Shown: positions 2,612 to 17,654 of the stretch, one piece after another
How positions within the stretch are numbered: the first letter of the stretch is position 1
Layout: each line of letters opens with the position of its first letter
Assembly (NCBI GenBank): GCA_004561785.1
Contig: SFUB01000001.1
Location: 1-48,335, forward strand
Length of the DNA stretch: 48,335 nucleotides
Direction of reading: 5' to 3'
Source of the DNA: a bacterium
GTDB lineage: Bacteria > Bacillota_I > Bacilli_A > RFN20 > CAG-826
Notes under the pieces: generated by a model
What the model was told of the DNA's origin: nothing
Database searches by the model: none
Seen by the model: the letters and a program-made list of their open reading frames with translations, nothing else
Position numbers and translations under genes: made by a program

Positions 2612-5194
2612 TTATTCCGCGAAGGTGAGGGTCAAACCCTTCACGTAGACGCGTTCACTTGAGCCGGTACCGGTCGTGGTGAGCTTGAAGAATTTGACGC
2701 CGGTGCCCTCGAATTTGAGGGTGACTTCATGGTTGCTCCAAGCCGGGGCCGTCACGGCCTCGCCCACGCTTTCGGCAGAAGCCCCATAGACGTAAGTGAA
2801 GGGGCCTTCGCCCTTGGAAGCGCCGTCGGAAACGATGGTAAGAGAGACCAAAGCCTTGGCCTCCGCGCCGCCTTCAATGGTGAAGGTTCCGCCCCCCTGA
2901 TAGACGCGGATCGCGCCGCTGTACACCCCAGGTGCGGTGCCAGCGTTGCCTTGCTCAGCTTTGTAGGTATAGCCGGTCTCGCCGAGAGTTCCATTCACGG
3001 CCGCGAAGGAAGTGACCATGAACTCATTGTTGCCGGCGACTGAGACTTCGATATAAGCCTTCCTACCGGTGGAGGAGGTGATGGTGATGCGGGCATCCCC
3101 ACCGGCGACGGCGGTCACGAGGCCGGTCTCGCTGACGGTCGCGACGGCATCGTCGGAGCTTGCGTAGGTGAAGGTGTCACCTTCCCCCGCGGAAGCGGTG
3201 ATCTGAGAGGTTTCTCCGATCTTCAGGGCGCTAGAAGCAATGGAGGCACTGACGGCGGTTCCAGAAGCGGCCTCGAGGAATTCGATTTTCGCGGCGCCTT
3301 TGTTGACGGTCTCAGGGGTGCCATTATAATTGGTCACTGCTCCAGTGACCTTGACTTTGGCCCCGGCGACGATCTTTTTGCTGACCTCTTCGGTGCAGCC
3401 GACTTGGAAGGCGATGAATTTAGCATCCGGATCGTCGATCTCATCCGAAAGGGTGACGCTCATATTCTCAAACTTGGCAGACCATTCATTGGTGACCTTT
3501 GCGACGTAGCCGGTGATGACGTAGGTGTCGGCGCTGACCGCTCCGCTGGCAAGTTTGTTGGCGGCTGCGATGGCCTCCGCGACGGTCGCATTGATGGTTG
3601 ACCCAACCGCTTCGGAGAGGAATTGGGTCGTTCCTTTCGTGGCCTGGAGGGAAACGGTCTTAACGCCATCATCCGCGGTCTTCACGTACTTGTTGAGATA
3701 AGCGGTGACCTTGACTTTGGCCCCGGCGACGATTTTGGAGGAATCGACGCCATCGGCGAGTTTAGTGCGGAAGACCTCGAGGACATCCTTCGCATCGGCG
3801 GAAGCGCCGATCTTATAGCTCATGTTCTTGTATTGGTCGCTCCAAGCGTTGGTGACCTCGGTCACGTAACCGGTGATGGCGTATTCCTTCTCGGTGGTCT
3901 TGCCTTCTTCCAAACCGTTCACGATCTCAAGGGCTTTCGCGACGTCGATCTCTTCCACGACAACGGGAGCATCGCCAGCTTCGAGGATCTCGACGGAGAT
4001 GACCTTGCCGGTCTCGACGGCGTATTTGCCTTCTTCGGAGGTGGAAACATAGTACTTGAGGGTGCACTTCACCTTGACCTTTGCATTGAGGGTGCATTGA
4101 TCCTTGTTATCCCCGGAATAGCCATAGACGAGGAAATCGTCCTTGGTCGGGGTGATCGCCCCCTTCGCATCGGCGATGTAGAAGCCCTCGGAGGAAGTGG
4201 CGACGATGTAGCCGGTGATGATGTAGTTGTCGACGGAGGTGGCATTTTTGTCGAGGGCCTTCGTGGCGGCGACGGCCTGGGCGACGGTCGCTTCGATGTC
4301 TTTGACGGTGATCTTCTCACCTTCGACCTTGGTGATTTCTCCGCCTTGTTCGGTTTCGGGGACGCTGTTGTTGTAATTGACAATCTTGACCTTCGCGGTC
4401 ACGGTCGCGCCGACCCAGATGTCTTCATCGGTGACTTTGGTGCTTCCGTCGGCTTTGAAGTCCTTGCTCAAGACCGCGCGGTAAACGAGGAACTTGGCGT
4501 CGTCTCCGGAGTTGGCTTTGAGATAATAGGAGACGTTGCCATAGCTAGAAGGAGCGTCGCGGAAGGAATCGACGACGCCTTTGACGTAGAAGTATTTCTC
4601 CGTCGCAGTCGTGCCGGTGGCTTTGGCGACTTTGAGGGCGTCGGCGTTGTCAAGAGGATCCGTGGCGGTGCCGGCGTGGACGGTGCCATAAAGATTGATG
4701 GCGTTTTGGGCAGGGGAGACGGTCAAATCGACGCTGTCGCTCTTATCGCCATAGGTAACGGTGATTTTGGCGGTGCCGGCGGAGATGGCGCTCAAGACGC
4801 GTCCGGTGACTCTGACGACCTCAGGGTTGGAGGAGACAATCGTGATCTTGCCCTGATTGATGAGAAGATTGATGTTCCCCGCCGGATCGACGGCGATACT
4901 CAGGGTGCGGTTGGCGCTCTCAACGGCCCAAGCGGCCTGCAACTCTTCTTTGTTGGTGATGCTGATGGAGTTGACGACGTCCTCAGAACTCTTAGATTCC
5001 GAAGACGAAGGCACGTCGACGGAGCTCGAAGGCACGTCGACGGAGCTCGAAGGCTTATCAACGGAACTCGAAGGCACATCGATGGAGCTCGCAGGCTCAT
5101 CGACGGAGCTTGAGGAGCTCTCGACGGGGTTCGGTCCGCAAGAGACCAAAGCGAACAAAGCCAAAGCGGTTAATGGGATAAACGATTTTTTCAT
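2612..5194 (-). CDS. Large surface lipoprotein: Ser-rich tether, Big_2 domain, four OB-like repeat modules, second Big_2 domain, C-terminal beta domain
   Basis: Signal peptide plus lipobox MKKSFIPLTALALFALVSC. AGGAGG lies 5 nt before the ATG at 5194, so the track start at 5212 is an upstream extension. Big_2-like segments are ITIVSSNPEVVRVTGRVLSAISAGTAKITVTY and FTYASSDDAVATVSETGLVTAVAGGDARITIT. The repeated motifs are YxITGYV...NMS...AGAKVKVT. Confidence 0.85.
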   Translation of the reverse strand: MKKSFIPLTALALFALVSCGPNPVESSSSSVDEPASSIDVPSSSVDKPSSSVDVPSSSVDVPSSSESKSSEDVVNSISITNKEELQAAWAVESANRTLSIAVDPAGNINLLINQGKITIVSSNPEVVRVTGRVLSAISAGTAKITVTYGDKSDSVDLTVSPAQNAINLYGTVHAGTATDPLDNADALKVAKATGTTATEKYFYVKGVVDSFRDAPSSYGNVSYYLKANSGDDAKFLVYRAVLSKDFKADGSTKVTDEDIWVGATVTAKVKIVNYNNSVPETEQGGEITKVEGEKITVKDIEATVAQAVAATKALDKNATSVDNYIITGYIVATSSEGFYIADAKGAITPTKDDFLVYGYSGDNKDQCTLNAKVKVKCTLKYYVSTSEEGKYAVETGKVISVEILEAGDAPVVVEEIDVAKALEIVNGLEEGKTTEKEYAITGYVTEVTNAWSDQYKNMSYKIGASADAKDVLEVFRTKLADGVDSSKIVAGAKVKVTAYLNKYVKTADDGVKTVSLQATKGTTQFLSEAVGSTINATVAEAIAAANKLASGAVSADTYVITGYVAKVTNEWSAKFENMSVTLSDEIDDPDAKFIAFQVGCTEEVSKKIVAGAKVKVTGAVTNYNGTPETVNKGAAKIEFLEAASGTAVSASIASSALKIGETSQITASAGEGDTFTYASSDDAVATVSETGLVTAVAGGDARITITSSTGRKAYIEVSVAGNNEFMVTSFAAVNGTLGETGYTYKAEQGNAGTAPGVYSGAIRVYQGGGTFTIEGGAEAKALVSLTIVSDGASKGEGPFTYVYGASAESVGEAVTAPAWSNHEVTLKFEGTGVKFFKLTTTGTGSSERVYVKGLTLTFAE
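5007..5111 (-). repeat. 21-bp tandem repeat x5 (plus a partial sixth) encoding the (P)SSSVD(V) tether
   Basis: Units lie at 5007-5027, 5028-5048 (identical), 5049-5069, 5070-5090 and 5091-5111. The consensus is GAAGGCACGTCGACGGAGCTC on the plus strand. Confidence 0.9.
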
Positions 5195-5238
5195 ATTTCC
5201 TCCTATTCCCAAATAACGAAAGCGACGATATCCCGGAC

Positions 5239-5712
5239 TTACTGGACGAAGGTCCGGTTGTTAATATCCTTCAGCAGGCGCGAGTTGGAACGTTTCTTGG
5301 CGATGCCAAGGCAAACGAACGTCGCTCCTGCGCAAAGGAGAATAACCGAGGCGACGAGGAGAACCACGAAGACATAGAACTCCGCGCATTCGACGACCAA
5401 CTGGTATTGGTTGGTCGGCTTCTTCGCGAGGAAGAAGAAGAGGATGGAGAGGATGAGCGCGATGCCTCCAATGGAGAGCATGCCCATCCCGCTGGCGAAG
5501 GAGTTGCGGGCCCTTTGGATCTGTGCGTGGGCGGCTTGCGAGAGGGACTTGACCTCCGCCTCGTCAAGACCGGCGTGGATCAGATGGCCGCAGCGGGGGC
5601 AAACGTAATTAAGCGTGGCGTCTTCTGCAATCTCCACGTCAGGAGAATAGGAAGAAGACTTCGCTTCGATCTTCGATTCATCGATCTTTTTGGCGCAATG
5701 GGGGCAATACAT
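5239..5712 (-). CDS. Zinc-ribbon membrane protein (N-terminal CxxC...CxxC, two C-terminal TM helices)
   Basis: 157 aa. MYCPHCAKK...VCPRCGHL form a 4-Cys ribbon, followed by the hydrophobic helices MLSIGGIALILSILFFFL and FYVFVVLLVASVILLCAGATFVCLGI. It starts 4 nt after the nuclease gene stop. Confidence 0.7.
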   Translation of the reverse strand: MYCPHCAKKIDESKIEAKSSSYSPDVEIAEDATLNYVCPRCGHLIHAGLDEAEVKSLSQAAHAQIQRARNSFASGMGMLSIGGIALILSILFFFLAKKPTNQYQLVVECAEFYVFVVLLVASVILLCAGATFVCLGIAKKRSNSRLLKDINNRTFVQ

Positions 5713-5716
5713 AAGT

Positions 5717-7294
5717 TCAGGCCTGTTCTTTCTTCACCCATTTCATGTCCGTGGACTTCCTGGGGTAGATGTTGAATTTGTCGTTGCCGGTCGAAGAGGA
5801 GTGGAGGCCGAGGACCCCTTGGAAGAGGAAGGTCTCGCCCACGAAGCGGTCATAGCTGCTCCACCTCAGGGCGGTGTCATTGGGGTCGGGCTGATAGTCG
5901 AAGGTGAAATAGACGCTCCAAGCCGTTTTGTCGGTGGCGGAGGTGTAGAGGACGTGGGCGGAATCGGAATCGTAGCCGCCGGTGACGGTCACTTCGTCGG
6001 TGATCTTGACGGAGCAATTCAAAGCGGAATAATCCTCGGCTTTGATCGCTGCGTTGAGCTCGGCGTTCGTGTATTCGAAGGTGTAGAGCTTATGCTCTTC
6101 GGGGACGTCTTTCGCGCGGTAGATGACTTGAGCATCCTTTTCATCAAAAGAAACGGTCGGGAAAGTGCCGTCGGTGAGCTGGAATCCGAAGTTGCTCTCC
6201 AACGCCAAAGCGGAAACTTGGATGTAGTTCCCGATGGTGGTGAACTTCGAGGGAATCGCGGACATGCCGACGAAGATGTTGATCCCGGCGTACTCGCCTA
6301 GGATTCCTTGTTTGATTTTGTCTTCATAGATGGAGTTGCCATAATCGTCGAAATAAAGAGGCTCGCCGGATTCGCTCACGTAGGAGCAGTAATCCTGGAT
6401 GTAGACGATGTGGTTCGAGAAGCCAGCGACGGCCCCCTGGACGGTGACCTTAGCGTTATCGTAGGCGTTCTTATGGGAGGGGTCTTTCAAGGAAGCGACG
6501 ACTTCGTTTTTGATGTCGAGCAAAGAGACGTTCTTATATCCGCCATAGTTGAAATAGGGGTCGGGCTCGGTTCCGAAAAGATGGAGCCCGGCGTTCTTGG
6601 CTTGGGTTTCCGCGGCGTAGAAGGTATCGACGTAATCGGGGATGTCCGCGACGTTTTTGACCCAAGAATAGCCGTTCTCGACGATCATGAGGTTCAGAAG
6701 CTTCAGCTGATCGAAGGGGGCGTTCTTGACGGATTCGTTGATCCAGACAAGGGAGACGTAGCGCGAGCCGGTGGAATCGGCGGAAGGGGCTTCATAGACG
6801 CTCGTGGGGGAGGAGACGACGATCGTTCCTTTCTTATTGGCCCTCTCAAGGATCTCCGAGGTGTATTTGGAGGCGGGTTTCCCCCAAGGTTGGACCTTGC
6901 CGGTGGATTCGGGGGTGTCGATCCCGTAGAAACGGGCCTTCAGAAGGGTCTCGCCCTTTTCGCTTTTTGTGGAGGTGGTGAAATGGGCGGTGTCCCCGTC
7001 GATCGTCGAATGGAGGGTGACTTGCTCAATGCCATCGGTCCAGAAAGAATGCCCGACGTAATCCAGATTGAGCTTCACCGATCCATCGGAAGCGTAATCG
7101 ATCCAACCCATGGAGGAAGATTCCGAGGATGGCTCCGAGGAAATGGAAGAAGAAGATTCCGATGGTTGTTCCGAAGAAATGGAAGAAGCGGGCTGCTCGT
7201 CTTCCGTGGAAGAGCTGGGGGTTGGCGCGTCATTGCAGGCGGCAAGCCCAAGGCAAAGCGCGGTAAGGACGAAGAGAAGGGAACGTTTTTTCAT
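5717..7294 (-). CDS. Membrane-anchored lipoprotein nuclease (staphylococcal nuclease/thermonuclease fold) with a C-terminal beta-rich extension
   Basis: Lipobox MKKRSLLFVLTALCLGLAAC, then a Ser-rich tether. The SNase core reads GETLLKARFYGIDTPESTGKVQPWGKPASKYTSEIL...VSLVWINE...LMIVENGYSWV. A GAGG SD precedes the ATG at 7294. An alternative ATG at 7309 overlaps the upstream stop. Confidence 0.85.
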   Translation of the reverse strand: MKKRSLLFVLTALCLGLAACNDAPTPSSSTEDEQPASSISSEQPSESSSSISSEPSSESSSMGWIDYASDGSVKLNLDYVGHSFWTDGIEQVTLHSTIDGDTAHFTTSTKSEKGETLLKARFYGIDTPESTGKVQPWGKPASKYTSEILERANKKGTIVVSSPTSVYEAPSADSTGSRYVSLVWINESVKNAPFDQLKLLNLMIVENGYSWVKNVADIPDYVDTFYAAETQAKNAGLHLFGTEPDPYFNYGGYKNVSLLDIKNEVVASLKDPSHKNAYDNAKVTVQGAVAGFSNHIVYIQDYCSYVSESGEPLYFDDYGNSIYEDKIKQGILGEYAGINIFVGMSAIPSKFTTIGNYIQVSALALESNFGFQLTDGTFPTVSFDEKDAQVIYRAKDVPEEHKLYTFEYTNAELNAAIKAEDYSALNCSVKITDEVTVTGGYDSDSAHVLYTSATDKTAWSVYFTFDYQPDPNDTALRWSSYDRFVGETFLFQGVLGLHSSSTGNDKFNIYPRKSTDMKWVKKEQA

Positions 7295-7305
7295 ATTCAG
7301 GAACC

Positions 7306-8865
7306 TCATTTGATGTAAGTCGCGGCCGTGGCGATGGCGTCGTCGAGGGCCGTGGTGACGGACTTGGAGCCGAGGAGAGCTTGGGTCAAGGCGCCGCCGA
7401 TTTGTTCGCGGAGCTGGGCCGATCCGACGAAGACGTCGGTGTTGAGGTAATGGCCGTCGATGTCGTTGATCAAGACCTTCGCCGATTCCGCGTAGGTCTC
7501 GCCTTCTTCCATGAAAGTGAGGAATTCGTTGGTCTCATAGGCGGAATAGCGGACGGGGAGATAGCCTTCCGATCCGTAGATGCAGAGATAGTCGTTGACG
7601 ACGGGGTTCGTGATGAATTTCGCGAATTGCCACGCGTAGCGCATCTTCTCATCGTTTTCCTCATCGCTGTTTCGGCTGGAGCGGAGGAAGGTCATAGTCG
7701 GGCCTTGGGTGACGTAGAGGGGGTTCGAATTGTTCGCGGGGACCCTCACGATGCCAACGTCGAAGGTCGCGCCGTCGGGGGAGTTATAGCCGGTGCCGCC
7801 GGAGGAACCGATCTCGAAGATGACCTGGCCTTTTTTGAAAGCGTCGGAGCCATAGGTCCCCTTCATGCCCTTGGTGGTCAATAAGCCGTCATCGACTTCT
7901 TTCTTGGTTTTGGTCATCCAAGCTTCGAGATCCTCGCGGGCTTTCCCATCCTTGAATTCGATCTTGCCGACGCCGTCGGATCCGATCGAGGCATAGGGGA
8001 TGTTCTCTTGGAACATCTTCGAGATGATGAAGTTCGCGTCGGAGTCGTACCAAACCGGAGAGGTCAAAGAGGAAAGGACCTTGTCTTTGTTGTCCAAGGC
8101 GACCTTGGCCAGATCCATCAGCTGATCCCAGCTCATGGAGGCCAAGAAGGCGTCCCTTTCGTCTTCGGAGACGATGTCAGGGCGATAGATGCGGAAGGCG
8201 TTGGCGACGGCCTGTTTGTTATAGAACATGACCTCGGAGGATTTCATCAAGGGCAGAGAATAGGTTCCCGGCTTGGAGTAGTGGGTGCCTTCATCGAGGA
8301 AGGCCTCCACGAAATCGGAGGCATCGTAGACCGAGGTCCCGACTTTGTCGCCGAGGTAATCCTGGGTCCCGAAGCCGATCTCGGGATCATTCATGTAGTC
8401 GTCGAGATTGTAGACGAGAGAGCCGCCCAAGACGTTCAGGTAATTGGCGACGTGGTCGGGGTAGGCAATCGCGATCGTCGGGGTGTTGCCGATGGAGAAG
8501 CCCTTGGTCACCTTGTCGAGCATATCACCATAGGCGCCTTGGTATTCGCAGTGGATGGTGACATCCACCCCCTGCTCCTTCTTGATGATTGCAGAAAACT
8601 CGTCGGCTTTCTTTTGAAGGGCCACGCCGTTGCTTTGGCCGAAGGTGGTCCAAAAGTCCAGCTCGACCTTCTTCATCTCGCCGCTATTTCCGTTTTGGGA
8701 AGAGGCTTGGGAAGATGCTTGGGAAGATGCTTGGGAAGAGGCTTCGGAAGAGGAAGGGACCTCTCCCGAGGCGGAAGAAGAAGGAGGCTCCTCCGTGGGG
8801 CCGCAGGCGCAGAGGGCCACGAGAGCCGGAGCGCATGCCAAGATAAGTTTTCCGTTGATTTTCAT
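7306..8865 (-). CDS. ABC transporter substrate-binding lipoprotein (family 1 SBP), copy 1
   Basis: Lipobox LVALCAC and a Ser/Gln tether (SSQA repeats). The SBP_bac_1-like body reads ELDFWTTFGQ...YSLPLMKSSEVMFYNKQ...GIVRVPA. AAGGAG SD present. Confidence 0.85.
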   Translation of the reverse strand: MKINGKLILACAPALVALCACGPTEEPPSSSASGEVPSSSEASSQASSQASSQASSQNGNSGEMKKVELDFWTTFGQSNGVALQKKADEFSAIIKKEQGVDVTIHCEYQGAYGDMLDKVTKGFSIGNTPTIAIAYPDHVANYLNVLGGSLVYNLDDYMNDPEIGFGTQDYLGDKVGTSVYDASDFVEAFLDEGTHYSKPGTYSLPLMKSSEVMFYNKQAVANAFRIYRPDIVSEDERDAFLASMSWDQLMDLAKVALDNKDKVLSSLTSPVWYDSDANFIISKMFQENIPYASIGSDGVGKIEFKDGKAREDLEAWMTKTKKEVDDGLLTTKGMKGTYGSDAFKKGQVIFEIGSSGGTGYNSPDGATFDVGIVRVPANNSNPLYVTQGPTMTFLRSSRNSDEENDEKMRYAWQFAKFITNPVVNDYLCIYGSEGYLPVRYSAYETNEFLTFMEEGETYAESAKVLINDIDGHYLNTDVFVGSAQLREQIGGALTQALLGSKSVTTALDDAIATAATYIK

Positions 8866-8895
8866 ATCGTTCTCCTTCTTCTCCGCTTGGGAGGA

Positions 8896-10485
8896 TTACA
8901 TTTTGGTTTTGATGGTGTTTTCGGCTTTGTCGAATTCGGTGTTGACGATTTCGTCGGTGAGGGTCCCTTTATCCTTCATGAGAAGGGTGGTGACCAAGGA
9001 GCCGCAGGCGGTCCTGGCGACGTCGGAGCCTTTGAAGACCGGCGAGGTGTAGAGGCTACTAGCGACTTTTTCGTCCGCGACGTATTGGAAGACCCTGGCT
9101 TTGACCATGTCCAAACTATAGAGCTCCTTGCCTTCTTCGCTGGCGACATCGAGATAGTCGTTGGTCTCCATGTTGGAATAGCGGATCGGGGAGTAGCCGG
9201 TGTCGAGAGCCCATTTGAGGGAGTTCATCTCGTTGGTCATGTGCTTGTAGAAGAGCCAAGCGGCGAGGGCGCGGTTGTCGTCTTTGTGATCGAGGAGGCA
9301 AATGGACGGGCCCTGAGAGATGAGGGAGTTCTTATGGCCTGCGCCAGCAGGGGCCTGCGGGATGCGGGCAACCCCGGTATCGAGGTTCGCCGCGACTTGG
9401 TATTTGAGGCCGCCGGTGGAGCCGACGGTGAACAGGGCGGAGGAAGCGGTGAAGGAGAAGTTGGTGTACTTGCCATCTTTGGAGGAGCCTTTGGTGAAGA
9501 AGTAGCCGTTATCGTAGGCGGCTTTGAATTTCTTCATGAGGCCTTTCATGCCATCGTTGTTGAAGAGCAATTTTCCTTCGCCGGTAACGGGATCGACTTC
9601 GGTGTAGCCGTAGCCATATTGCTCAGCCAGGGTGATGAAGAGGTTGTCGTCGGAATCGTAGCCGAAGACGGCTTTGGTGTAGGTCGCGTTGTCGCGGAGG
9701 ATCTTGCGTTCGTCGTCGAGGGTGTTGTTATAGGAGACGAGGGCCGGGGCGAGGTGATCGAAGAGCTCATCCCAGGTGAGGTTATTGATGTATTCCTCGC
9801 TGATTGGGTTGCCGCCATTGATGGAGGAATCGATTTTGGAAAGGTCGAGGCCAAGGATGCATTTATTGTAGAACATGGCTTCGGTGGATTTGGAGAAGGG
9901 GAGCGAATAGGTTCCGGGGAGGGTGTATTTGACTCCTTCTTGGAGATAGGCGGGGATGATGTCGTCAAGATCATCATCGCTCCAGCCGTAGGTCTCATTC
10001 GTCATGTAGGGATCGAGCTGGCGGACGACGCCGTAATCCATGAGGGTGCCGATCGCGTCGGGATAAAGGACGGCGAGGTCGGCGTAGTTGTTGGCGGCGA
10101 GGCCATCGACAATCTTGTCTTTCAAGCCATCATAGCTTGTGGATTCCTTCGTGTTGATAACGGTTACGTTGGGTTCGATCTTCTTGAAGCTCGCGATGAA
10201 GGAGTCCAAATCATCCGTGTAGGAGGAGTTGGAGACGAGCTCAATGGTGGTCGGCTCTTTGATGAGGTATCGATCGCCGTCGGCGGAAGAGGACTCCTGC
10301 TCCTTGCTGCTTTCTTCCACGCTGGAGGAGGGTTCCTGTTCCTTGCTGCTTTCTTCAACGCTGGCGGCGGGGATGGAAGAGGCGGATTCCGGTTCCTTTG
10401 ACTCGGACTTGTCCTTGCTCCCCTGCGAGCAGGAGGCGATGGTGAGCAACGCGGCCATCGGCAAGACGTACAACAGCTTTTTCAT
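8896..10485 (-). CDS. ABC transporter substrate-binding lipoprotein (family 1 SBP), copy 2 (paralog)
   Basis: Lipobox LLTIASC and an acidic Ser-rich tether. It is colinear with copy 1 (YSLPFSKSTEAMFYNKC versus YSLPLMKSSEVMFYNKQ). Confidence 0.85.
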   Translation of the reverse strand: MKKLLYVLPMAALLTIASCSQGSKDKSESKEPESASSIPAASVEESSKEQEPSSSVEESSKEQESSSADGDRYLIKEPTTIELVSNSSYTDDLDSFIASFKKIEPNVTVINTKESTSYDGLKDKIVDGLAANNYADLAVLYPDAIGTLMDYGVVRQLDPYMTNETYGWSDDDLDDIIPAYLQEGVKYTLPGTYSLPFSKSTEAMFYNKCILGLDLSKIDSSINGGNPISEEYINNLTWDELFDHLAPALVSYNNTLDDERKILRDNATYTKAVFGYDSDDNLFITLAEQYGYGYTEVDPVTGEGKLLFNNDGMKGLMKKFKAAYDNGYFFTKGSSKDGKYTNFSFTASSALFTVGSTGGLKYQVAANLDTGVARIPQAPAGAGHKNSLISQGPSICLLDHKDDNRALAAWLFYKHMTNEMNSLKWALDTGYSPIRYSNMETNDYLDVASEEGKELYSLDMVKARVFQYVADEKVASSLYTSPVFKGSDVARTACGSLVTTLLMKDKGTLTDEIVNTEFDKAENTIKTKM

Positions 10486-10545
10486 GACTTTTTCCTTTCG
10501 TTCTATTTATATTCAAAGATTCATAGAATCTTGGAACATCTTATT

Positions 10546-11520
10546 TTAGCCTTTAATCCCGGCGCGCCCAACACCTTTCATAATGTACTTGCGGAAGAAG
10601 ATGAAGAGCAGGAACAACGGGACGGTGACCAAGACGGTGGCGGCCATTTGGTAGCCGTAATCGGTGACGCCCAAGTCGACGTCGACGAAGGTGGAGGAAC
10701 GCAGACCGTTGGAGATCAAGCGGAAATCGCGGGACTGGGTGACCAGGTTCGGCCAAACGTAGGAGTTCCAAGTGCCCATGAATTTGAGGATGGTGATGGA
10801 GATGAGGGTCGGCGCGGCCAAAGGAACCATGACCCTCCAAAGGAAGGACCAGTCGCTTTTGCCGTCGACCTTCGCGGCCAGATAAAGCTCATTGGGGATT
10901 TGCTTGAAGTTCTGACGGAGCAAATAGATGTAGAAGACCGAGACGATGAAAGGCACGATCATGGCCAAATAGGCATCGATCAGGGTCTGCGCCTGGCCGA
11001 CCCAGCCAAAGCTCGCCACGGTGATGTAGTTGGAGATGACCATCATCTCGCCCGGGATCATCATGGTCATGAGGAAAATCGCGAACACGGCGTCACGCCC
11101 TTTGAATTTGAGCCTCGCGAAGGCAAAGGCCGCGAGGATGGTCGTGATGAGGGTGCCGGCGGTGGAGAAGAAGGCGACCACGATGGTGTTCCACATATAG
11201 GTCCCGAAGTCGAAGACCTGGAAGACGTGGACGTAGTTGCTCCACATGACGATGCTCGGGAAGAAGGTCTGGGTCGCCCCGCGGATTTCCTCGTTCTGCT
11301 TGAGCGAGGTGATGATCATCCAGTAGAAGGGGAAGACGACGATGACGGCCAAAGCCAAAATGAAGAGGTAAGTGAGGACGGTCATGATGGCCTTGCTGAC
11401 CTTCTCGGTCCTTTTGATGGCCTCGACGGTCTTGCCCGATTCGCCCAAAGAGAGGGTTAGGTTGTCGTTGACGCGGACTTTCTTGAAATCCGGATAGGTT
11501 TTGACGGCGGTGTTTTCCAT
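10546..11520 (-). CDS. ABC transporter permease (MalG/UgpE-like, BPD_transp_1)
   Basis: 324 aa with six predicted TMs and the EAA-like loop region LYLAAKVDGKSDWSFLWRVMVPLAAP. AAGGAGGG SD present. Confidence 0.9.
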   Translation of the reverse strand: MENTAVKTYPDFKKVRVNDNLTLSLGESGKTVEAIKRTEKVSKAIMTVLTYLFILALAVIVVFPFYWMIITSLKQNEEIRGATQTFFPSIVMWSNYVHVFQVFDFGTYMWNTIVVAFFSTAGTLITTILAAFAFARLKFKGRDAVFAIFLMTMMIPGEMMVISNYITVASFGWVGQAQTLIDAYLAMIVPFIVSVFYIYLLRQNFKQIPNELYLAAKVDGKSDWSFLWRVMVPLAAPTLISITILKFMGTWNSYVWPNLVTQSRDFRLISNGLRSSTFVDVDLGVTDYGYQMAATVLVTVPLFLLFIFFRKYIMKGVGRAGIKG

Positions 11521-11533
11521 GCCTTGACCCTCC

Positions 11534-12616
11534 TTAATAATGGACCTTTTTCTTGGACGCCCAGAACTGCAGGGCGGTGAAGATCAGGATAACGATGAAG
11601 AGGAACACGGCCGCGGCCGCGGCGTAAGAGGTGTTCGTGGAAAGATTGTCGTAGATGTAATAGACGATCGTCTCCATGTTCGGGTCGCCCGCGGTGCCCA
11701 AGGTGCCGGGCCCGTTGAAGAGACCGACGATGTGGGTGTATTCCTTGAACGAGCCGATGAAGGAAGTGATCATGATGTAGAGGATCTGAGGCGAAAGAAG
11801 GGGGACGGTGATCTTCCAAAGCACTTTCCAGTGCGGGGTGGAATCAATCATCGCGGCCTGGTAGTACTGCTTATCGATGCCTTGAAGCCCGGAGAGGAAG
11901 ATGAGGATCTTGTAAGGAATAGAGCCCCAGATGATGTAGAGGCAAAGAGGAATGTAGGCAAGCTTCGGATCGGCCCCGTAGATCCAGGTGGTCGAGGTGT
12001 TGAAGATGTAGTTGATGACGCCGTTGGTGTCGAAGATGACCGAGAAGACCATGCCTACCGCGATGGAGTTCGTGACGTAGGGCAGGAAGAAGAGGGTCTG
12101 GAGGAATTTTTTGAACCAGGGGATCGAATTCAAGGCGACCGAGATGATGAGGGCCAAGAAGATCGAGACCGGCACCGTGATGATGACGAGGAGGAACGTA
12201 TTCGGGATCGCGTAGTTCACGAAGTTGATCTCGCGTCCTCCGGCGGCGTTGGTCGTAAGGCCGAAGATGTAAGTGAAGTTGTCGAAGGTGAGGTAATCGA
12301 ATTTGCCCGTGGCGTATTCGTATCCGCCGGTAAAGGCGATGAAGATGGTGTTGATGAGGGGGTAGATCAAGAAGATCGCCACCAGGATGATGACCGGGGC
12401 AAGATAGAGCCAGCCCTTCCAATTATTGGAGGCGCCGATGTCTTCGATGCCGCGGGTCCGGTAGGCTTTCTTCGAGGCGTGGTTCGAAACCAAAGTCACG
12501 ATGCGCTTGTTCTCCGGATCGTAGCCCGGATCGTAGCTCGGGCGCTCTTCCGCGAAGAGTTCCTGGGCGGCTAACCCGGAAGAGGCTATTGCTTTCTTTC
12601 TTCGATTGAAAAGCAT
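11534..12616 (-). CDS. ABC transporter permease (MalF/UgpA-like, BPD_transp_1)
   Basis: 360 aa, multi-TM, with the EAA-like loop YYQAAMIDSTPHWKVLWKITVPLLSP. AAGGAGG SD present. Confidence 0.9.
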   Translation of the reverse strand: MLFNRRKKAIASSGLAAQELFAEERPSYDPGYDPENKRIVTLVSNHASKKAYRTRGIEDIGASNNWKGWLYLAPVIILVAIFLIYPLINTIFIAFTGGYEYATGKFDYLTFDNFTYIFGLTTNAAGGREINFVNYAIPNTFLLVIITVPVSIFLALIISVALNSIPWFKKFLQTLFFLPYVTNSIAVGMVFSVIFDTNGVINYIFNTSTTWIYGADPKLAYIPLCLYIIWGSIPYKILIFLSGLQGIDKQYYQAAMIDSTPHWKVLWKITVPLLSPQILYIMITSFIGSFKEYTHIVGLFNGPGTLGTAGDPNMETIVYYIYDNLSTNTSYAAAAAVFLFIVILIFTALQFWASKKKVHY

Positions 12617-12628
12617 GTCGTCTCCTCC

Positions 12629-14539
12629 TTAGAAGCGGATCCTCTCTTCGGTCTCCCCGTCGAATAGGAAGGTTTTGTTGGGCTTGAGGAGCAATTTGAC
12701 GGATTTCCCTTGCTGCATCTCCTCGCTGGAGATGATGACTTTGAAGGTCGGCTTCACGGAAGCTTTGTTCAAGGCGACCAAGGAGATGTCGCGCCCGAGG
12801 ACCTGAAGCTGCTCGATGTCGGCGGAAAGGACGTTCTTTTGCCCTTTCTTGGCCAAGATGAACCCCTCGGGGCGGACGGCGACGAAGATATCTTTGTCGC
12901 CAAGCTCTTTGGGAAGATCCATGACGGCTTCTTCGCCGATGTAGACCTGCTTGCCTTGGATGCGGCCTTTGAAGACGTTGATCGGCGGGTTGCCGAGGAA
13001 CTGGGCGACGAAGAGGTTCGCGGGGTTGTTATAGACTTCCTGCGGGGCATCCATCTGCTGCATGATGCCGAATTTCATGACGACGATCTGATCGCAGATC
13101 GACATGGCTTCTTCCTGATCGTGGGTGACGAAGACGGTCGTGATGCCGGTCTCCTGCTGGATGCGGCGGATTTCCTCACGGGTCTGCAGGCGCAAACGGG
13201 CATCGAGGTTGGACAAAGGCTCGTCCAAGAGCAAGACGCGGGGCTTCTTGACCAAAGCGCGGGCGATGGCGACGCGCTGCTGCTGACCGCCGGAGAGTTG
13301 ATTCGGCTTCCTTTGGAGGTATTCATCGACCTGAACGAGTTTGGCAACGTCATAAACGATGTCACGCCTTTCCTCTTTCGTCAAAGAACGGTGGGCGATC
13401 GCTTGAGCCGTGTCGACTTCAAGATCCACCAGGTGGAGTTCTTCGGAAAGGCGATCAAGGATCTCCTTGGCCTTGTCCTTGCTGATCCGCTTCAGTTTGA
13501 AGTAGACCTTGGTGTTCGAACGGTCAAAGTAGAGTTTGAAGTCACTGAAGGCGGCCTTTTCTTTCTTGAGGGCCTCTTTGATGTTCTTCTCAAAGAGCCT
13601 GTCGACCACTTTGGAGATGGAATAGGAGACGCCTCCCGGATAGGGGAAGGAGCTTTCGATGGCGGAGATCAACTCATCCAGGGAGGCCCGCTTGGCGTTC
13701 GTGATGTTGCCCATGAGCTCGTAGCCTTCGCCGGTCTTGGCGATCGCGGCGCTTTCGATCTTTCCGAATTCTTTCGCGGAAGTGCGGAAGGAGGTGATGC
13801 ATTCATCGATGTGGGCGGTGGAGAAGCTCTTGCCGAGCTTTCCTTTGATGGCGAGGGAGAGGGTTTCCTTCTCGCTGGCGGCAGCCACGGTCGCGCGGAC
13901 GGTGGAGTCATAAAGCGGCTCAGACACCATGGTCTCCTCTTCGTCGACGAGCTTGGCCTCGATGATCGAAGGGAAGTGCTTGTCGAAGGCGGCGCGGACG
14001 CTCTTGGAGACGCCTTTCAAAGCGATGGTGAAATGGACGTTCTCGCCTTCTTCTTTGGCGGAGACGGAGAATTGCTTCTTGGAAAGGCCGAGTTTGCGGC
14101 AAAGGCTCTCGATGGATTTCACGATCCCGGGGACGATGTCGCGCGGATCTTTCTTATAATCATAAGACAAGGAATAATCGAAGAAGGTCTCCAAGGGGAC
14201 TTCGACTTTGAGGTTGGTCAAAGGGAATTCGATGTTCTTGTAGATCGTCATATGGGGATAGAGGGCGTAGTTCTGGAAGACCAAGCCGATCCCGCGCTTC
14301 TCCGGCGAGAGGTTGGTGACTTCCTGATCCCCGAACCAAACTTCCCCGGAAGTGGGGACCTGAAGGCCCGAAATCATGTAAAGGGTCGTGGACTTGCCGC
14401 AGCCGGAAGGGCCGAGCAAGCCGACGAGCTTGCCGTCGGGGACGACGAAGCTCATGTCTTTGACCGCGACGGTGTCGCGAATCCCTTTCTTCGCGTCGCC
14501 CGGGAAAATTTTGGTGAGGTCTTTGATGCGGATTTCCAT
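12629..14539 (-). CDS. ABC transporter ATP-binding protein (MalK/UgpC family) with a ~275-aa insertion in the helical subdomain
   Basis: Walker A GPSGCGKST, Q-loop LVFQNYALYPHMT, signature LSGGQQQRVAIARAL, Walker B VLLLDEPLSNLD, H-loop FVTHDQ and a C-terminal MalK-type regulatory beta domain. About 275 residues are inserted between PLTNLKV and LTKEERRDIV. Confidence 0.93.
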   Translation of the reverse strand: MEIRIKDLTKIFPGDAKKGIRDTVAVKDMSFVVPDGKLVGLLGPSGCGKSTTLYMISGLQVPTSGEVWFGDQEVTNLSPEKRGIGLVFQNYALYPHMTIYKNIEFPLTNLKVEVPLETFFDYSLSYDYKKDPRDIVPGIVKSIESLCRKLGLSKKQFSVSAKEEGENVHFTIALKGVSKSVRAAFDKHFPSIIEAKLVDEEETMVSEPLYDSTVRATVAAASEKETLSLAIKGKLGKSFSTAHIDECITSFRTSAKEFGKIESAAIAKTGEGYELMGNITNAKRASLDELISAIESSFPYPGGVSYSISKVVDRLFEKNIKEALKKEKAAFSDFKLYFDRSNTKVYFKLKRISKDKAKEILDRLSEELHLVDLEVDTAQAIAHRSLTKEERRDIVYDVAKLVQVDEYLQRKPNQLSGGQQQRVAIARALVKKPRVLLLDEPLSNLDARLRLQTREEIRRIQQETGITTVFVTHDQEEAMSICDQIVVMKFGIMQQMDAPQEVYNNPANLFVAQFLGNPPINVFKGRIQGKQVYIGEEAVMDLPKELGDKDIFVAVRPEGFILAKKGQKNVLSADIEQLQVLGRDISLVALNKASVKPTFKVIISSEEMQQGKSVKLLLKPNKTFLFDGETEERIRF

Positions 14540-14553
14540 ATGATTTCTCCTTC

Positions 14554-16596
14554 TTATTTGGTACCGTCTTCGACGATGTCAGAGTCTAAATGAAGCTTTT
14601 CCTTCTTCTTTCTCTCCATGGTTTCCTTGATGGAAATCACCATATCCTTGATGGCGAAGCCTAAGAATATGGCCCCGGCGAGGGTGAACACGATCACCCA
14701 GACGTCGAGGGGATTGAAGACCACGATGGTATTCTTCAGCATCGCCCAGCGGGCTGTGATGAAGAGGATAGAGGAGAGGATCAAGGCATAGCCGAGGAAG
14801 TTCTCGGCGGACTTGATCACGAATTTCTGCGTGTTGACGCGCCGGAATTCGTCGTTGCGGTACTTCTTCTTGCAGTAGAAGTAATAGGCGAAGGCGCCGG
14901 CGATGAACAAGGCGGCATAGGAGCCATAGGCGATTCCGAGGACCGCCCCAATGGAGAGGATTTGCACCCCGGCGACGCCTTCATCGGGGAGCAAGTCGAG
15001 GGTCGCGAAGCGGAAGGATTTCTTGGAGTTGTTGGCGATCGAGTTCTTCGTCGCGTTGAAGAGGTCCGCCTGGACGAAGAAGCCGCAAAGCTGAACGGAA
15101 CGGGCTTTCTCGATGCTGAAGTCAGGGGCGACGTCGCTATCCTTGATCAGGAATCCGATTTGGGTTCCATCGGTGATCTCGGTGGCTGTAACGGGGGTTC
15201 TGACAAAAAAGGTCTTGGTAACCAATTCCCCATTCCGGTTTTCATAGACGACGCGGTAAGAAGCGCTGGAAAGGGAGGAGAAGAGCAAACGGATGCGGAG
15301 GGTTCCGTTCTCAATGAGGGCCTTGTTGCTCTCATAGGCGGAAGGATTCACGGTTTGGTAGATCTCGTAATTGGCTTTGGCCTTCACCGAGAAGCGGGAA
15401 TAGCCGCCGATGAAAGTGGCCTGATCGGGGGTTAAGGAGAAGAAAGAGGAGAAATCGGAGACGCCGCTATAGGAGATGAGCGGCTTGGCTTTGATGGGTC
15501 TCGCCTCCGGATCGAAGATGACTCCGGTTCCGGCTTCGTCGCGAATCAGGCGGCGGATATTGTGGAAGACGATGCTTTCCCCGTCGATGTGCGCCCCCTT
15601 TGGGATTTCCACATCCACGTAACGGTCGTCCTTCGCTTTCCCGGCCAAGGTGCCAACCGCGTCAAACGGAAGGGTGGTCGACGCTTTGGGAAGCTCGTAA
15701 TAGCAATGCTCCCGCAAAACGCGGTTCTCGGAATCAAGAAGCGTGTATTCCATCGTCAAGGGCAGATTGTTCTCGGGGTTGGCCTCGTCAAAATAGCCGA
15801 CGAAGAAGTTCTTGCCCTCGCCAAAGGCGGTCGCACCCGTAGTGTTGACGCTGAGCATCCTCTTCTCGGCGCTTGAATAAGAGTCCTCGGTATGGGAATA
15901 TTCAACTTCGGCGTCAGTCCAGTCTTCTTCCCAGCCCGGCAAAGCGGAGGCTTCGGCGGATTTGATCTTCACGCCGGCTTCCTGAGCGCCGGCGAAGGCG
16001 TTCGCGGAGATGGAAGTGTATCCAGAAGGGATCACGATGGTCTCGATGTTGTTGTAGGAAACGGCTTTGAGATTGTTGTAATCATAGCAGGCATCGGCAT
16101 CGATCCCCGTCACATGGAGGCGAAAGATAGCGACCGGGGAGCCATAGTTGATGTATTGAGGCAAGACCACGTTCTTGCTGGATTTGCCAGCGTTGTTGAT
16201 GTTGAAGACCCTCGCCTCATAGACCTCCGGCTCATAAGGGTGTTCCTCGGTCGCATTCTTCTGCGCCTCCTCGGATTTGGCTTTGGCCGTATTGAGGTCC
16301 ACGTAGTTCTCATCGACGATGCGGGCGAAGACGTTGTTGTAACGGGTGGAGTTGTTCCAAGCCTCAATCTTGACCGACTGCATGGACAAATTGAAACTCT
16401 GGGAGGTGGAGGTGATGGAGCTCCCCGTCAGCGAGACGGCGAGTTCCATGCGATCGGCATCTTCCTCATCGCCGAAATCGCGGATATTCTCCGCTTCGGC
16501 CTTGGCTTCGAACGCCGAACCGCCGAGGCCGGTGAGCATTCCTCCGCCAAGCAGCAAAGCGAGCGATCCCAAGAAAGCGAAAAGACGTTTCCTCAT
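14554..16596 (-). CDS. Secreted protein of unknown function with a large ectodomain, anchored by three C-terminal TM helices; first gene of the operon
   Basis: 680 aa. Signal peptide MRKRLFAFLGSLALLLGGGMLTGLGGSAFEAKA with no lipobox Cys. One BspA/LRR_5-like segment (IETIVIPSGYTSISANAFAG). Three hydrophobic helices lie near the C-terminus. GGGGGA lies upstream of the ATG. Confidence 0.75.
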   Translation of the reverse strand: MRKRLFAFLGSLALLLGGGMLTGLGGSAFEAKAEAENIRDFGDEEDADRMELAVSLTGSSITSTSQSFNLSMQSVKIEAWNNSTRYNNVFARIVDENYVDLNTAKAKSEEAQKNATEEHPYEPEVYEARVFNINNAGKSSKNVVLPQYINYGSPVAIFRLHVTGIDADACYDYNNLKAVSYNNIETIVIPSGYTSISANAFAGAQEAGVKIKSAEASALPGWEEDWTDAEVEYSHTEDSYSSAEKRMLSVNTTGATAFGEGKNFFVGYFDEANPENNLPLTMEYTLLDSENRVLREHCYYELPKASTTLPFDAVGTLAGKAKDDRYVDVEIPKGAHIDGESIVFHNIRRLIRDEAGTGVIFDPEARPIKAKPLISYSGVSDFSSFFSLTPDQATFIGGYSRFSVKAKANYEIYQTVNPSAYESNKALIENGTLRIRLLFSSLSSASYRVVYENRNGELVTKTFFVRTPVTATEITDGTQIGFLIKDSDVAPDFSIEKARSVQLCGFFVQADLFNATKNSIANNSKKSFRFATLDLLPDEGVAGVQILSIGAVLGIAYGSYAALFIAGAFAYYFYCKKKYRNDEFRRVNTQKFVIKSAENFLGYALILSSILFITARWAMLKNTIVVFNPLDVWVIVFTLAGAIFLGFAIKDMVISIKETMERKKKEKLHLDSDIVEDGTK

Positions 16597-16660
16597 AGAA
16601 AATTATCCCCCTGTCGCGACATGCATTCCAAAAAAGTGGGCAGGTTCATATCTGGGCCTA

Positions 16661-16689
16661 ATACTACCGCCATTAGGCGAGCTTTGCAA
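16661..16689 (-). promoter_or_regulatory. Candidate sigma-70 promoter of the nine-gene operon
   Basis: Minus strand reads TTGCAA (16689-16684), 17 nt spacer, TAGTAT (16666-16661), about 65 nt upstream of the ATG at 16596. Confidence 0.4.
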
Positions 16690-16985
16690 ACCGTCATAAC
16701 GGGAAAGGACAAGGGGATATTCAAAGGAAAATAAAAAGAGGATTCTCCAAAGTTCCACAAGCGGAATTCGTTTGGCCCAATCTACATTTTTCCTTTTTTA
16801 AAATTGCCGCCAGTTTCCTTTTGGAGGCAAAGCCGAAAAGCAATGCTCCCTAGCAATGGCATTGGACGGTTGGGCAACCCAATAAAAGGGGGAAACGTAT
16901 AAGGGGTGGTGTGGATGAAAAGTCGTTCAAAGTCCAAAGACGCGTGGCGATGGCGAGCATGGATTGCCGGACTTTTGTTTACGCT

Positions 16986-17642
16986 TCATGGAATTGCGAA
17001 CTCGGCAAACCCGTTGCTCGACGTATCCTCCGAAGCTGCGTTAGGAGGGCCATAGGTGATGTTTGCAATCGGCGGCTCTTGCACGGAATCAACAAAATCA
17101 TATAAATCTTTGAATTTCGAAGAAGAGGAACTATCAAAAATAGATTTGTCAGCCATGTAAAACAGCATTTTAAAGTCCGTTGGATCAGTCGAATCGAGAT
17201 AAAAGAAATGAAATATGAGAAAAGCATTCAAGGACGGATAGTCCGCGCGCAGAATAGAACTGATTCCAAAATTGACGCCATAATAGCGAAGTTCCCAATT
17301 CAAGTCCGGCAGGAGCGTCGCCCCTTCCCACCAATAGGCCGCGTTTTTGACCCTTTCTTTTCCATTGAAATAGGACGGCCAGGCTATCCGCGACGTGCCA
17401 TCCGGGACCTCAGAGATGGGAGAAGCATGCAAGTCCTTCCCCTCGATCTGCGCCCTGAAAGCGGAGGCGAAGGGGAAGAAATCGTTCCCCTCCGAAGGCA
17501 GAGAGAATACGGATTCCTTCATCGAGATGGTCCAATAGCCGCTCGGTTCAGGATAACCAGGGGGCGTAAGCGGATCCGGCCCACAAGAAGCTAGGCCCAA
17601 GGCCAAGGCTCCCAAGCAAAGAACAGGAAGATGTCTTTTCAT
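16986..17642 (-). CDS. Lipoprotein of unknown function
   Basis: 218 aa, lipobox LGLASC. A GAGGGAGAAA SD precedes the ATG, which lies 12 nt after the stop of the peptidase reading frame. Codon composition is AT-richer than in the neighbouring genes. Confidence 0.7.
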   Translation of the reverse strand: MKRHLPVLCLGALALGLASCGPDPLTPPGYPEPSGYWTISMKESVFSLPSEGNDFFPFASAFRAQIEGKDLHASPISEVPDGTSRIAWPSYFNGKERVKNAAYWWEGATLLPDLNWELRYYGVNFGISSILRADYPSLNAFLIFHFFYLDSTDPTDFKMLFYMADKSIFDSSSSSKFKDLYDFVDSVQEPPIANITYGPPNAASEDTSSNGFAEFAIP

Positions 17643-17654
17643 TTTCTCCCTCTT

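Follow-up and report, generated by a model that had tools for sequence, protein, structure and literature searches.

The operon described here lies on contig SFUB01000001.1 of GenBank assembly GCA_004561785.1, from a bacterium of the GTDB order RFN20 and family CAG-826. The stretch of DNA that was analyzed, hereafter the window, comprises positions 1 to 48,335 of this contig. Nine minus-strand open reading frames (ORFs), called g1 to g9 in the direction of transcription, occupy positions 2612-16596 and share a simple layout: genes for an ATP-binding cassette (ABC) ATPase, two permeases, two substrate-binding proteins (SBPs) and a lipoprotein of the staphylococcal nuclease (SNase) type follow one another between g1 and the pair g8-g9 (Table 1). 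Together, the nine genes probably encode a system for scavenging nucleic acid.

A first reading of the window, made from the sequence alone, had described nine minus-strand genes, and all of the ORFs were found where it had placed them. The genes are tightly packed, with gaps from g1 to g9 of 14, 12, 13, 60, 30, -4 (an ATGA overlap), 4 and 26-44 nt. The likely start of g9 is the ATG at 5194, which gives a gene at 2612-5194 and a protein of 860 aa. The promoter that the sequence-only reading had proposed at 16661-16689 matches the consensus at 8 of 12 positions and falls below the detection of a consensus-based scan; in seven relatives with a g1 identity of 49-58%, the flanks have diverged around an unchanged -35 hexamer, TTGCAA, and TAT(A)TTA box. 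The terminator that it had placed at 2555-2596 was likewise recovered, as a 15-bp stem followed by a T-run, and is the strongest within 18 kb. Terminator-like sites on the minus strand within the operon are short and all lie inside coding sequence. Because the promoter box is conserved, the spacing is tight and there is one strong terminator, the simplest reading is that the nine genes form a single predicted transcript, running from one promoter to one terminator.

Table 1. Genes and signals of the operon, with the adjoining RDD genes. Positions are those of the window.
Feature	Position	Strand	Length	Description
g1	14554-16596	minus	680 aa	Signal peptide, β-sandwich ectodomain, three C-terminal transmembrane helices
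g2	12629-14539	minus	636 aa	CUT1-type UgpC/MalK/MsmX-like ABC ATPase with insert
g3	11534-12616	minus	360 aa	UgpA/MalF-like permease
g4	10546-11520	minus	324 aa	UgpE/MalG-like permease
g5	8896-10485	minus	529 aa	Substrate-binding lipoprotein, paralogue A
g6	7306-8865	minus	519 aa	Substrate-binding lipoprotein, paralogue B
g7	5717-7309	minus	530 aa	SNase-domain lipoprotein
g8	5239-5712	minus	157 aa	Zn-ribbon-like motif and two transmembrane helices
g9	2612-5212	minus	866 aa from TTG	Modular surface lipoprotein
Promoter-like box	16661-16689	minus		TTGCAA, 17 nt, TAGTAT; read from sequence
Tentative upstream ORF MNLPTFLECMSRQGDNFL	16593-16649	minus	18 codons	TGA overlaps the g1 ATG (ATGA)
Intrinsic terminator	2563-2597	minus		15-bp stem, 5-nt loop, TTTTTATT tail, 15 nt past the g9 stop
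Two RDD-family membrane protein genes	1424-2533 and 417-1427	minus	369 and 336 aa	Pfam RDD, in tandem

The nuclease is encoded by g7. Its product has a lipobox (LAAC) and a domain spanning about residues 95-245, of which residues 125-244 match the Pfam SNase family (PF00565) with 38 bits against a cut-off of 21, in agreement with the staphylococcal-nuclease core that the sequence-only reading had recognized in this lipoprotein. SNase chains in the PDB also match a profile of the g7 family (E = 1.5e-7). Eleven diverse homologues all have D106, R126, D131, T132, E134 and R183, which correspond to D21, R35, D40, T41, E43 and R87 of SNase; the alignment spans the DGDT and DTPE motifs, and R183 was paired with R87 by eye from the GSRYVSL motif. 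As judged from its sequence, g7 is a staphylococcal nuclease with all six catalytic and Ca2+ residues intact, and nuclease activity is predicted. A total of 693 homologues were found, the best of which are conserved over nearly the full length, and g7 includes a conserved C-terminal region of about 280 residues. The modules in this region show no match to the OB modules of g9 (described below) in blastp; hhalign gives a probability of 93%, but this value stems from a Big_2 extension that some of the g7 homologues carry.

In 14 low-GC relatives, an extra gene encoding a lipoprotein of about 380 aa is found between g7 and g8 (L056:11374-12504, L060:11339-12487, L080:11310-12449 and 11 further loci). 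This protein carries a second SNase domain (Pfam E-values of 8e-12 to 9e-7) and an N-terminal domain that is lamin-tail-like by eye.

The transporter core is made up of g2, g3 and g4. The g2 protein matches NCBIfam UgpC (E = 9e-101, 337 bits) in two stretches. Residues 1 to about 110 and 384-636 match MalK, MsmX and SugC in the PDB, with the C-terminal regulatory domain matched through residue 636. Between these stretches, separating the Q-loop region from the LSGGQ signature, is an insert of 273 residues in the helical subdomain (109-381; window 13396-14215, minus strand), which explains the length of the ATPase and was not spelled out in the sequence-only reading. g3 matches BPD_transp_1 (E = 6e-21) and NCBIfam UgpA (8e-17), and g4, which at 70-94% identity is the most conserved gene of the operon, matches BPD_transp_1 (2e-16) and NCBIfam UgpE (1e-29). 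The NCBIfam, Pfam and PDB matches agree with one another and with the MalK/UgpC-like ATPase and MalF- and MalG-like permeases named in the sequence-only reading. With a permease pair, a MalK/UgpC-type ATPase and family-1 SBPs all present, g2 to g4 and the SBPs can be assigned to the CUT1 ABC importers (TC 3.A.1.1).

The insert in g2 has few relatives. An exhaustive phmmer search of 1.84 billion representative proteins returned only 12; judged by size and pattern, all of them come from the same clade, and none connects the insert to another family. The insert is kept in all 27 orthologues examined (ATPases of 631-655 aa), with a column identity of 0.51 as against 0.91 in the nucleotide-binding domain core. 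A match to DUF6899 (E = 0.0018) was not seen in three insert homologues and was attributed to chance. Internal repeats were also dismissed, as hhalign self-comparison gave only an E-value of 0.004 and a probability of 8%.

The best indication of what is transported comes from the SBPs. g5 has a lipobox (IASC) and matches Pfam SBP_bac_8 (E = 1e-26, 94.6 bits). g6 is 30% identical to g5 (E = 6e-42); it has no Pfam match itself, and its orthologues carry SBP_bac_8. These two results, the g5 match and the g5/g6 identity, bear out the two paralogous SBP lipoproteins of the sequence-only reading. Both paralogues are found in every complete locus. A profile built from 54 sequences (27 of each paralogue plus the window pair) was searched against the PDB sequences. 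At the top was the 7C0X/7C0F series, which binds a dinucleotide, uridylyl-3'-5'-phosphoguanosine (U3G), with E-values of 4-5e-25. It was followed by the UgpB structures 9LFF, 4AQ4 and 6X84, which bind glycerol 3-phosphate (G3P; 1e-18 to 1e-19), by the mycobacterial UgpB structures 6R1B and 4MFI, which bind glycerophosphocholine (GPC; about 1e-9 to 1e-10), and by binders of neutral sugars (6e-6 or worse). g6 alone also matches the 7C0x dinucleotide-binding series (E = 5e-7). The entry for 7C0F in SI Table S5 of PMC12718374 gives it as the U3G-binding protein of Thermus thermophilus.

In UgpB and in the proteins that bind GPC or U3G, the phosphate is held by a strictly conserved set of two Tyr and two Ser that glucose binders lack; a pair of Trp that clamps the glycerol is found in G3P binders only (PMC12718374). 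In g5, the quartet corresponds to Y118, S200, S356 and Y431, which are invariant in all 54 SBPs and align in HMMER with Y65, S144, S270 and Y346 of E. coli UgpB (precursor numbering). When E. coli UgpB was added with MAFFT --add, the two N-lobe sites agreed and the C-lobe sites were shifted by a few columns; the motif-consistent HMMER alignment was used. No conserved Trp pair is present in the clamp region among the 54 SBPs. At the columns of Trp169/Trp172, the g5 group has D/A and F, and the g6 group has S/A/G and F/I/M; this region aligns poorly and is left unaligned by HMMER, so that the column assignment is approximate. Because the Tyr/Ser/Ser/Tyr quartet is kept and the Trp pair is not, g5 and g6 are predicted to be phosphate-ester binders with a non-G3P pocket. 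There are also consistent differences between the g5 and g6 groups at pocket-region columns, which, together with the retention of both paralogues in every genome, suggests two ligand classes. Overall, the SBP sequences speak against neutral sugars and against G3P itself, and favor nucleotides or dinucleotides.

A Ugp-like importer might instead take up G3P or glycerophosphodiesters, with phospholipids and teichoic acids of host or dietary origin as their source; the nuclease and g9 would then be co-transcribed surface proteins with a separate role. This explanation is unlikely, if still a serious one. UgpC, UgpA, UgpE and UgpB are the best curated NCBIfam matches of the transporter parts, with 34 of the 54 SBPs matching UgpB. 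However, all of these SBPs are below the 411-bit cut-off of the UgpB equivalog (NF008211): g5 and g6 score 19-22 bits, and the family reaches at most about 60 bits (best E = 2e-14). The conserved phosphate quartet is as expected for such ligands, but the Trp169/Trp172 clamp is replaced by D/S/A and F in what are approximately the same columns, and the best solved relative is a dinucleotide binder, not UgpB. A wall-less cell requires lipid precursors, and four genes of the M. bovis operon, MBOVPG45_0307-0310 (PMC5634790), as well as MPN134-136 (PMC3178575), have been annotated as G3P transporters. Against this, the operon contains no diesterase of the GlpQ/UgpQ type, and its only phosphodiesterases are the one or two SNases found beside the SBPs in every genome.

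The same combination of genes is found in many relatives. A scan with the nuclease profile, using one genome per GTDB species, identified 220 relatives, and the best 80 of the 220 loci were analyzed for synteny by tblastn with the window proteins. The genes g1 to g8 are colinear in 66 of the 80 loci. The remaining 14 end at a contig boundary, and there is no counter-example among the 80. Nuclease identity across the colinear loci ranges from 40 to 76%. Both SBPs, the nuclease, the transporter, the Zn-ribbon protein and the large modular lipoprotein are linked in all 66 informative genomes; the sequence-only reading had named the neighborhood in related genomes as a check on its proposal, and the nuclease and the OB-like lipoprotein do stay with the transporter. 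A g9-like gene follows g8 in 68 loci, highly variable in architecture between species and fixed in position. Separate contigs found via a protein index have the same gene order. The arrangement is far beyond chance.

One relative has a different arrangement. Here, the operon position holds a single ORF of 656 aa (protein P0171; L086:8001-9971, L087:4991-6961), with an AAA_33 kinase gene on one side and two RDD genes on the other. The ORF consists of g1 residues 1-372 fused in frame to g9 residues 354-648, and it was seen in the metagenome-assembled genome GCA_050872145.1 as well as in independent Logan assemblies. It is apparently the result of a natural deletion of about 10 kb that removed g2 to g8, the alternative being an assembly collapse.

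Gene order also bears on whether the nuclease and g9 might degrade extracellular DNA mainly for non-nutritional ends, such as escape from DNA traps or from a biofilm matrix, or defence against foreign DNA, and be neighbors of an unrelated transporter through inherited synteny. Surface nucleases of mycoplasmas break down neutrophil extracellular traps and serve as virulence factors (PMC9740415), and at least one strain appears to do without the operon. However, the strict colinearity, which persists down to 40% nuclease identity, and the overlaps or gaps of 4 nt that join the SBP, nuclease and g8 genes argue for functional coupling. Moreover, the phosphate-ester signature of the SBPs and their affinity to a dinucleotide binder match the products of a nuclease. 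A chiefly non-nutritional role is therefore given little credence.

The last gene of the operon, g9, encodes a lipoprotein built from several modules. Pfam detects Big_2 and Big-like domains, and an OB match is sub-threshold. The AlphaFold2 (AF2) model (pLDDT 84.5) has four modules between a Big-like and a Big_2 domain, and a β-sandwich at the C-terminus (723-860). Each of the four modules (163-294, 295-410, 411-530 and 531-645) is modeled as one helix and five strands. Foldseek with the whole model gave a match to the tandem RPA-like OB folds of Teb1 (3u58; probability 1.0, E = 1.6e-5), and a Big_2-CBM56 structure (7r3t) was among the other high-probability matches. In our reading, the latter match would cover the Big_2 domain and the C-terminal region. 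When single modules were searched with Pfam, a weak OB match was obtained for module D only. Some g9 homologues do exceed the OB cut-off: P0202, P0206 and P0177 score 37.2, 36.9 and 30.9 bits, respectively, with PF01336, and 36.7 bits is reached with PF13742. The Pfam Big_2 match, the five-strand modules and the Teb1 match all fit the Big_2 and OB-like modules that the sequence-only reading had assigned to g9.

The C-terminal domain of g9 (723-860; window 2612-3025) resembles a carbohydrate-binding module (7r3t), and CBM_4_9 occurs in some distant g9 homologues (P0202-P0204). CUT1 systems usually transport sugars, and the best PDB match of the SBPs was named a "sugar ABC transporter" by its depositors. 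The operon could thus be pictured as an oligosaccharide importer of the CUT1 type with g9 as a glycan-binding surface protein, as in the glycan utilization loci of Gram-positive bacteria, and the sequence-only reading had held that family-1 SBPs would fit oligosaccharides equally well. That parity is lost, as the phosphate quartet, which is absent from glucose binders (PMC12718374), is present in the SBPs and their closest relative among solved structures binds a dinucleotide; the "sugar" entry itself is listed as a dinucleotide binder in the table cited above. Sugar binders fare at least 19 orders of magnitude worse (E = 6e-6 or worse, versus 4-5e-25), and there is no glycoside hydrolase in the operon. 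Oligosaccharide import is accordingly considered highly improbable.

The roles of g1 and g8 are less readily suggested by their sequences. g1 has no Pfam or NCBIfam family match. Its AF2 model (pLDDT 80) has a β-sandwich ectodomain and long helices at 549-578, 589-620 and 630-677, and Foldseek searches against the PDB returned only generic Ig/arrestin and tandem β-sandwich matches with a TM-score below 0.2. The signal peptide and the three C-terminal helices of the model are those expected of the secreted protein with three transmembrane segments in the sequence-only reading. g8 has an N-terminal CxxC...CxxC motif and two hydrophobic helices, consistent with the Zn-ribbon protein with two transmembrane segments described there, and gives weak Zn-ribbon Pfam matches only. 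g1 heads the operon in all 66 complete loci, and g8 follows the nuclease gene in all informative loci, with 35-84% identity. g1, g8 and the g2 insert are conserved, lineage-specific accessories, possibly for assembly or regulation.

Several features surround the operon. The two RDD genes lie outside the transcription unit in the window. Such a pair adjoins the operon in 55 genomes, downstream in 11 (including close relatives) and upstream of g1 in 44, and the RDD proteins may be functionally linked to the system. On the upstream side, two ORFs (16986-18859, minus strand; 218 and 394 aa) match no Pfam family and lack counterparts next to the operon in all 80 related loci, so that the conserved block ends at g1 (or at the RDD gene). 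The tentative upstream ORF MNLPTFLECMSRQGDNFL begins about 11 nt past the conserved -10 box. The seven closest relatives share its open frame, length and ATGA overlap, whereas more distant ones lack it. This conservation could reflect a near-leaderless leader peptide coupled to g1 or, equally, a conserved element of the 5' untranslated region. In an Rfam search of the whole window, no family reached its gathering threshold; with the limit relaxed to E ≤ 1, the interval 16400-17200 yielded only a chance match to a small RNA on the opposite strand. Three plus-strand ORFs antisense to the operon (3623-5113, 8008-10401 and 12710-14593; 496-797 aa) are of low complexity and rich in G, D, E and R, and were rejected as shadow ORFs arising from codon bias.

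The window has a GC content of 50-60% and also contains rpoB/rpoC-sized ORFs and genes for EF-G, EF-Tu and ribosomal proteins, and the operon is therefore chromosomal. A g9 homologue with 98% identity carries the name "Candidatus Enteromonas sp." Ca. Enteromonas corresponds to GTDB UBA733 in the order RFN20 and family CAG-826, with type genomes of about 1.2 Mb and 57% GC (PMC8035907). Peptidoglycan deficiency has been predicted for CAG-826 and CAG-288 (PMC10868615), and RFN20 and Mycoplasmatales have a common ancestral node in the tree used in that study. Given the predicted absence of peptidoglycan, the lipoproteins of the host would be exposed directly at the cell surface, as they are in mycoplasmas.

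The operon is thus best understood, with a probability that we put at roughly 60%, as the nucleic-acid scavenging system of a wall-less, genome-reduced gut bacterium. By means of its four OB-type modules, the lipid-anchored g9 would keep extracellular DNA or RNA at the cell surface. The products of staphylococcal nuclease are 3'-phosphorylated mono- and dinucleotides, and g7, as a lipid-anchored SNase of the Ca2+ type, would cut the bound DNA or RNA to the same products. The SBPs g5 and g6 would bind these phosphate esters and, in the way that type I ABC importers receive ligand from SBPs, hand them to a CUT1-type importer made from the g3 and g4 permeases and two copies of g2. The operon would then be akin to ugpBAEC-ugpQ, with a phosphodiesterase that is extracellular and acts on nucleic acid. 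We infer both the identity of the imported molecule and the existence of a single assembly, in which g1, g8 and the ATPase insert would be accessory or regulatory parts. The fullest version of this scheme is more doubtful: that g5, g6 and the CUT1 transporter take up 3'-nucleotides, dinucleotides or short oligonucleotides generated at the surface, so that the locus is complete for nucleic-acid utilization and capture, cleavage and uptake are physically coupled via g1, g8 and the ATPase insert, can only be put forward tentatively.

Several observations weigh against nucleic-acid scavenging. The curated families closest to the transporter parts are those of a G3P system, UgpBAEC, and the phosphate quartet of the SBPs fits glycerophosphodiesters equally well. 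No purine, phosphoribosyl pyrophosphate or other riboswitch was found upstream of the operon with Rfam. The OB folds of g9 score 17.2-17.8 bits in Pfam, below the cut-off of 27, its full-length Foldseek list consists mostly of generic Ig strings, in which only the Teb1 and Big_2-CBM56 matches are domain-specific, and its C-terminal domain, as described above, resembles a carbohydrate-binding module. The g1::g9 fusion means that the system appears to be dispensable in some strains. The sole sequence link to Mycoplasma is the NCBIfam "P68 family surface lipoprotein", which we take to be a Mollicutes family; 43 of the 54 SBPs match it (best E = 9e-18), none of them reaching the 200-bit cut-off, and no match to a P80 model was obtained. 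Finally, the order of genes in the window, ATPase-permease-permease-SBP-SBP-SNase, differs from the SBP-SNase-ATPase-permease-permease order of Mycoplasma (PMC3585158).

Mycoplasmas and related uncultured gut bacteria are unable to make many of their building blocks, and how they feed on extracellular nucleic acid has been debated for 20 years without a defined transporter substrate. The locus suggests that the pairing of nuclease and transporter predates Mycoplasmatales and extends beyond them, and shows that it is fixed, with extra conserved parts, in a large clade from the animal gut (at least 66 species). From the residue signature of the SBPs and their link to the Thermus dinucleotide binder, the ligand is predicted to be a phosphorylated nucleotide or dinucleotide. 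With 55% GC and the standard genetic code, the genes could be expressed directly in E. coli, which makes the prediction easier to test than in Mycoplasma. Import of nucleotides, dinucleotides or oligonucleotides, if true, would be a substrate class undemonstrated in vivo for a CUT1 importer, and by homology it would settle the cargo of the Mycoplasma MG187-189 / MPN134-136 / MBOVPG45_0307-0309 transporter. If the scavenging reading is wrong, the locus would still define a new branch of phosphate-ester ABC importers.

Among systems of known structure or function, T. thermophilus 7C0F, for which PMC12718374 cites Chandravanshi et al. 2021, is the best solved relative of the window SBPs and falls in the same CUT1 phosphate-ester subclade. 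The N-lobe Tyr, the Ser of a "KS" motif and the C-lobe Tyr of a "GY.P" motif align between them. However, identity is low, about 270 of about 490 profile positions are aligned, and the window SBPs are 100-120 residues longer and lipid-anchored. We know of no nuclease at the Thermus 7C0F locus. The E. coli ugpBAEC-ugpQ operon has the same transporter architecture and phosphate quartet and also includes a phosphodiesterase gene. The window locus differs from it in lacking the Trp169/Trp172 clamp, in encoding an extracellular nuclease in place of the glycerophosphodiesterase UgpQ and in the 273-residue ATPase insert, and its scores are below the equivalog cut-offs.

YhcR of Bacillus subtilis combines OB and SNase domains with a 5'-nucleotidase domain in one sortase-anchored polypeptide. 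It resembles the predicted proteins of the window locus in placing extracellular nucleic-acid OB folds together with a Ca2+-dependent SNase at the cell surface. In the window, by contrast, the OB and SNase parts are split over two lipoproteins and joined to a transporter.

The closest parallel in gene content is found in Mycoplasma. SNase genes adjoin an SBP-like lipoprotein gene and an ABC operon in M. agalactiae, M. bovis, M. hominis, M. pneumoniae and M. hyopneumoniae (PMC3585158, PMC9740415), which agrees with the smaller Mollicutes version, of unsettled substrate, that the sequence-only reading had named. The operons compared here were M. gallisepticum mslA-MGA_0676, M. agalactiae MAG_5030(P80)-5040-5050-5060-5070, M. 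bovis MBOVPG45_0307-0311, M. hyopneumoniae mhp379, M. pneumoniae MPN133-136 and M. genitalium MG185-189. The SNase of M. agalactiae, MAG_5040, is co-transcribed with the SBP-like lipoprotein P80, an ABC ATPase and two permeases, and a nucleotide-uptake machine was proposed (PMC3585158, PMC9740415). MslA of M. gallisepticum is described in PMC4045577 as binding both single- and double-stranded DNA, and the same paper refers to MBOVPG45_0307-0311 as a putative operon for nucleotide transport; the G3P annotation of 0307-0310 mentioned above came later. In M. agalactiae, nucleoside uptake has been proven for a different, PnrA-type system, P48 (mBio 2025, PMC12892991).

In the Mycoplasma operons and in the window, an SNase lipoprotein is found beside an SBP-like lipoprotein, a MalK/UgpC-type ATPase and two permeases, a likeness drawn from gene content. 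The hosts in both cases are wall-less, genome-reduced Bacilli, the same model of binding, cutting and import has been proposed, and the substrate is unsettled in both. The window locus differs in having two SBP paralogues, where Mycoplasma has one, and a nuclease of 530 aa with a 280-residue C-terminal extension, compared to 250-390 aa in Mycoplasma. It has three further conserved genes, g1, g8 and g9, the last of which encodes the multi-OB lipoprotein, and an ATPase insert without detectable similarity outside its own clade. It also belongs to a different bacterial order, with 55% GC and the standard genetic code. The concept of binding, cutting and importing has already been proposed for the Mycoplasma MslA/P80-SNase-ABC operon, and the window locus is an expanded variant of it with new parts.

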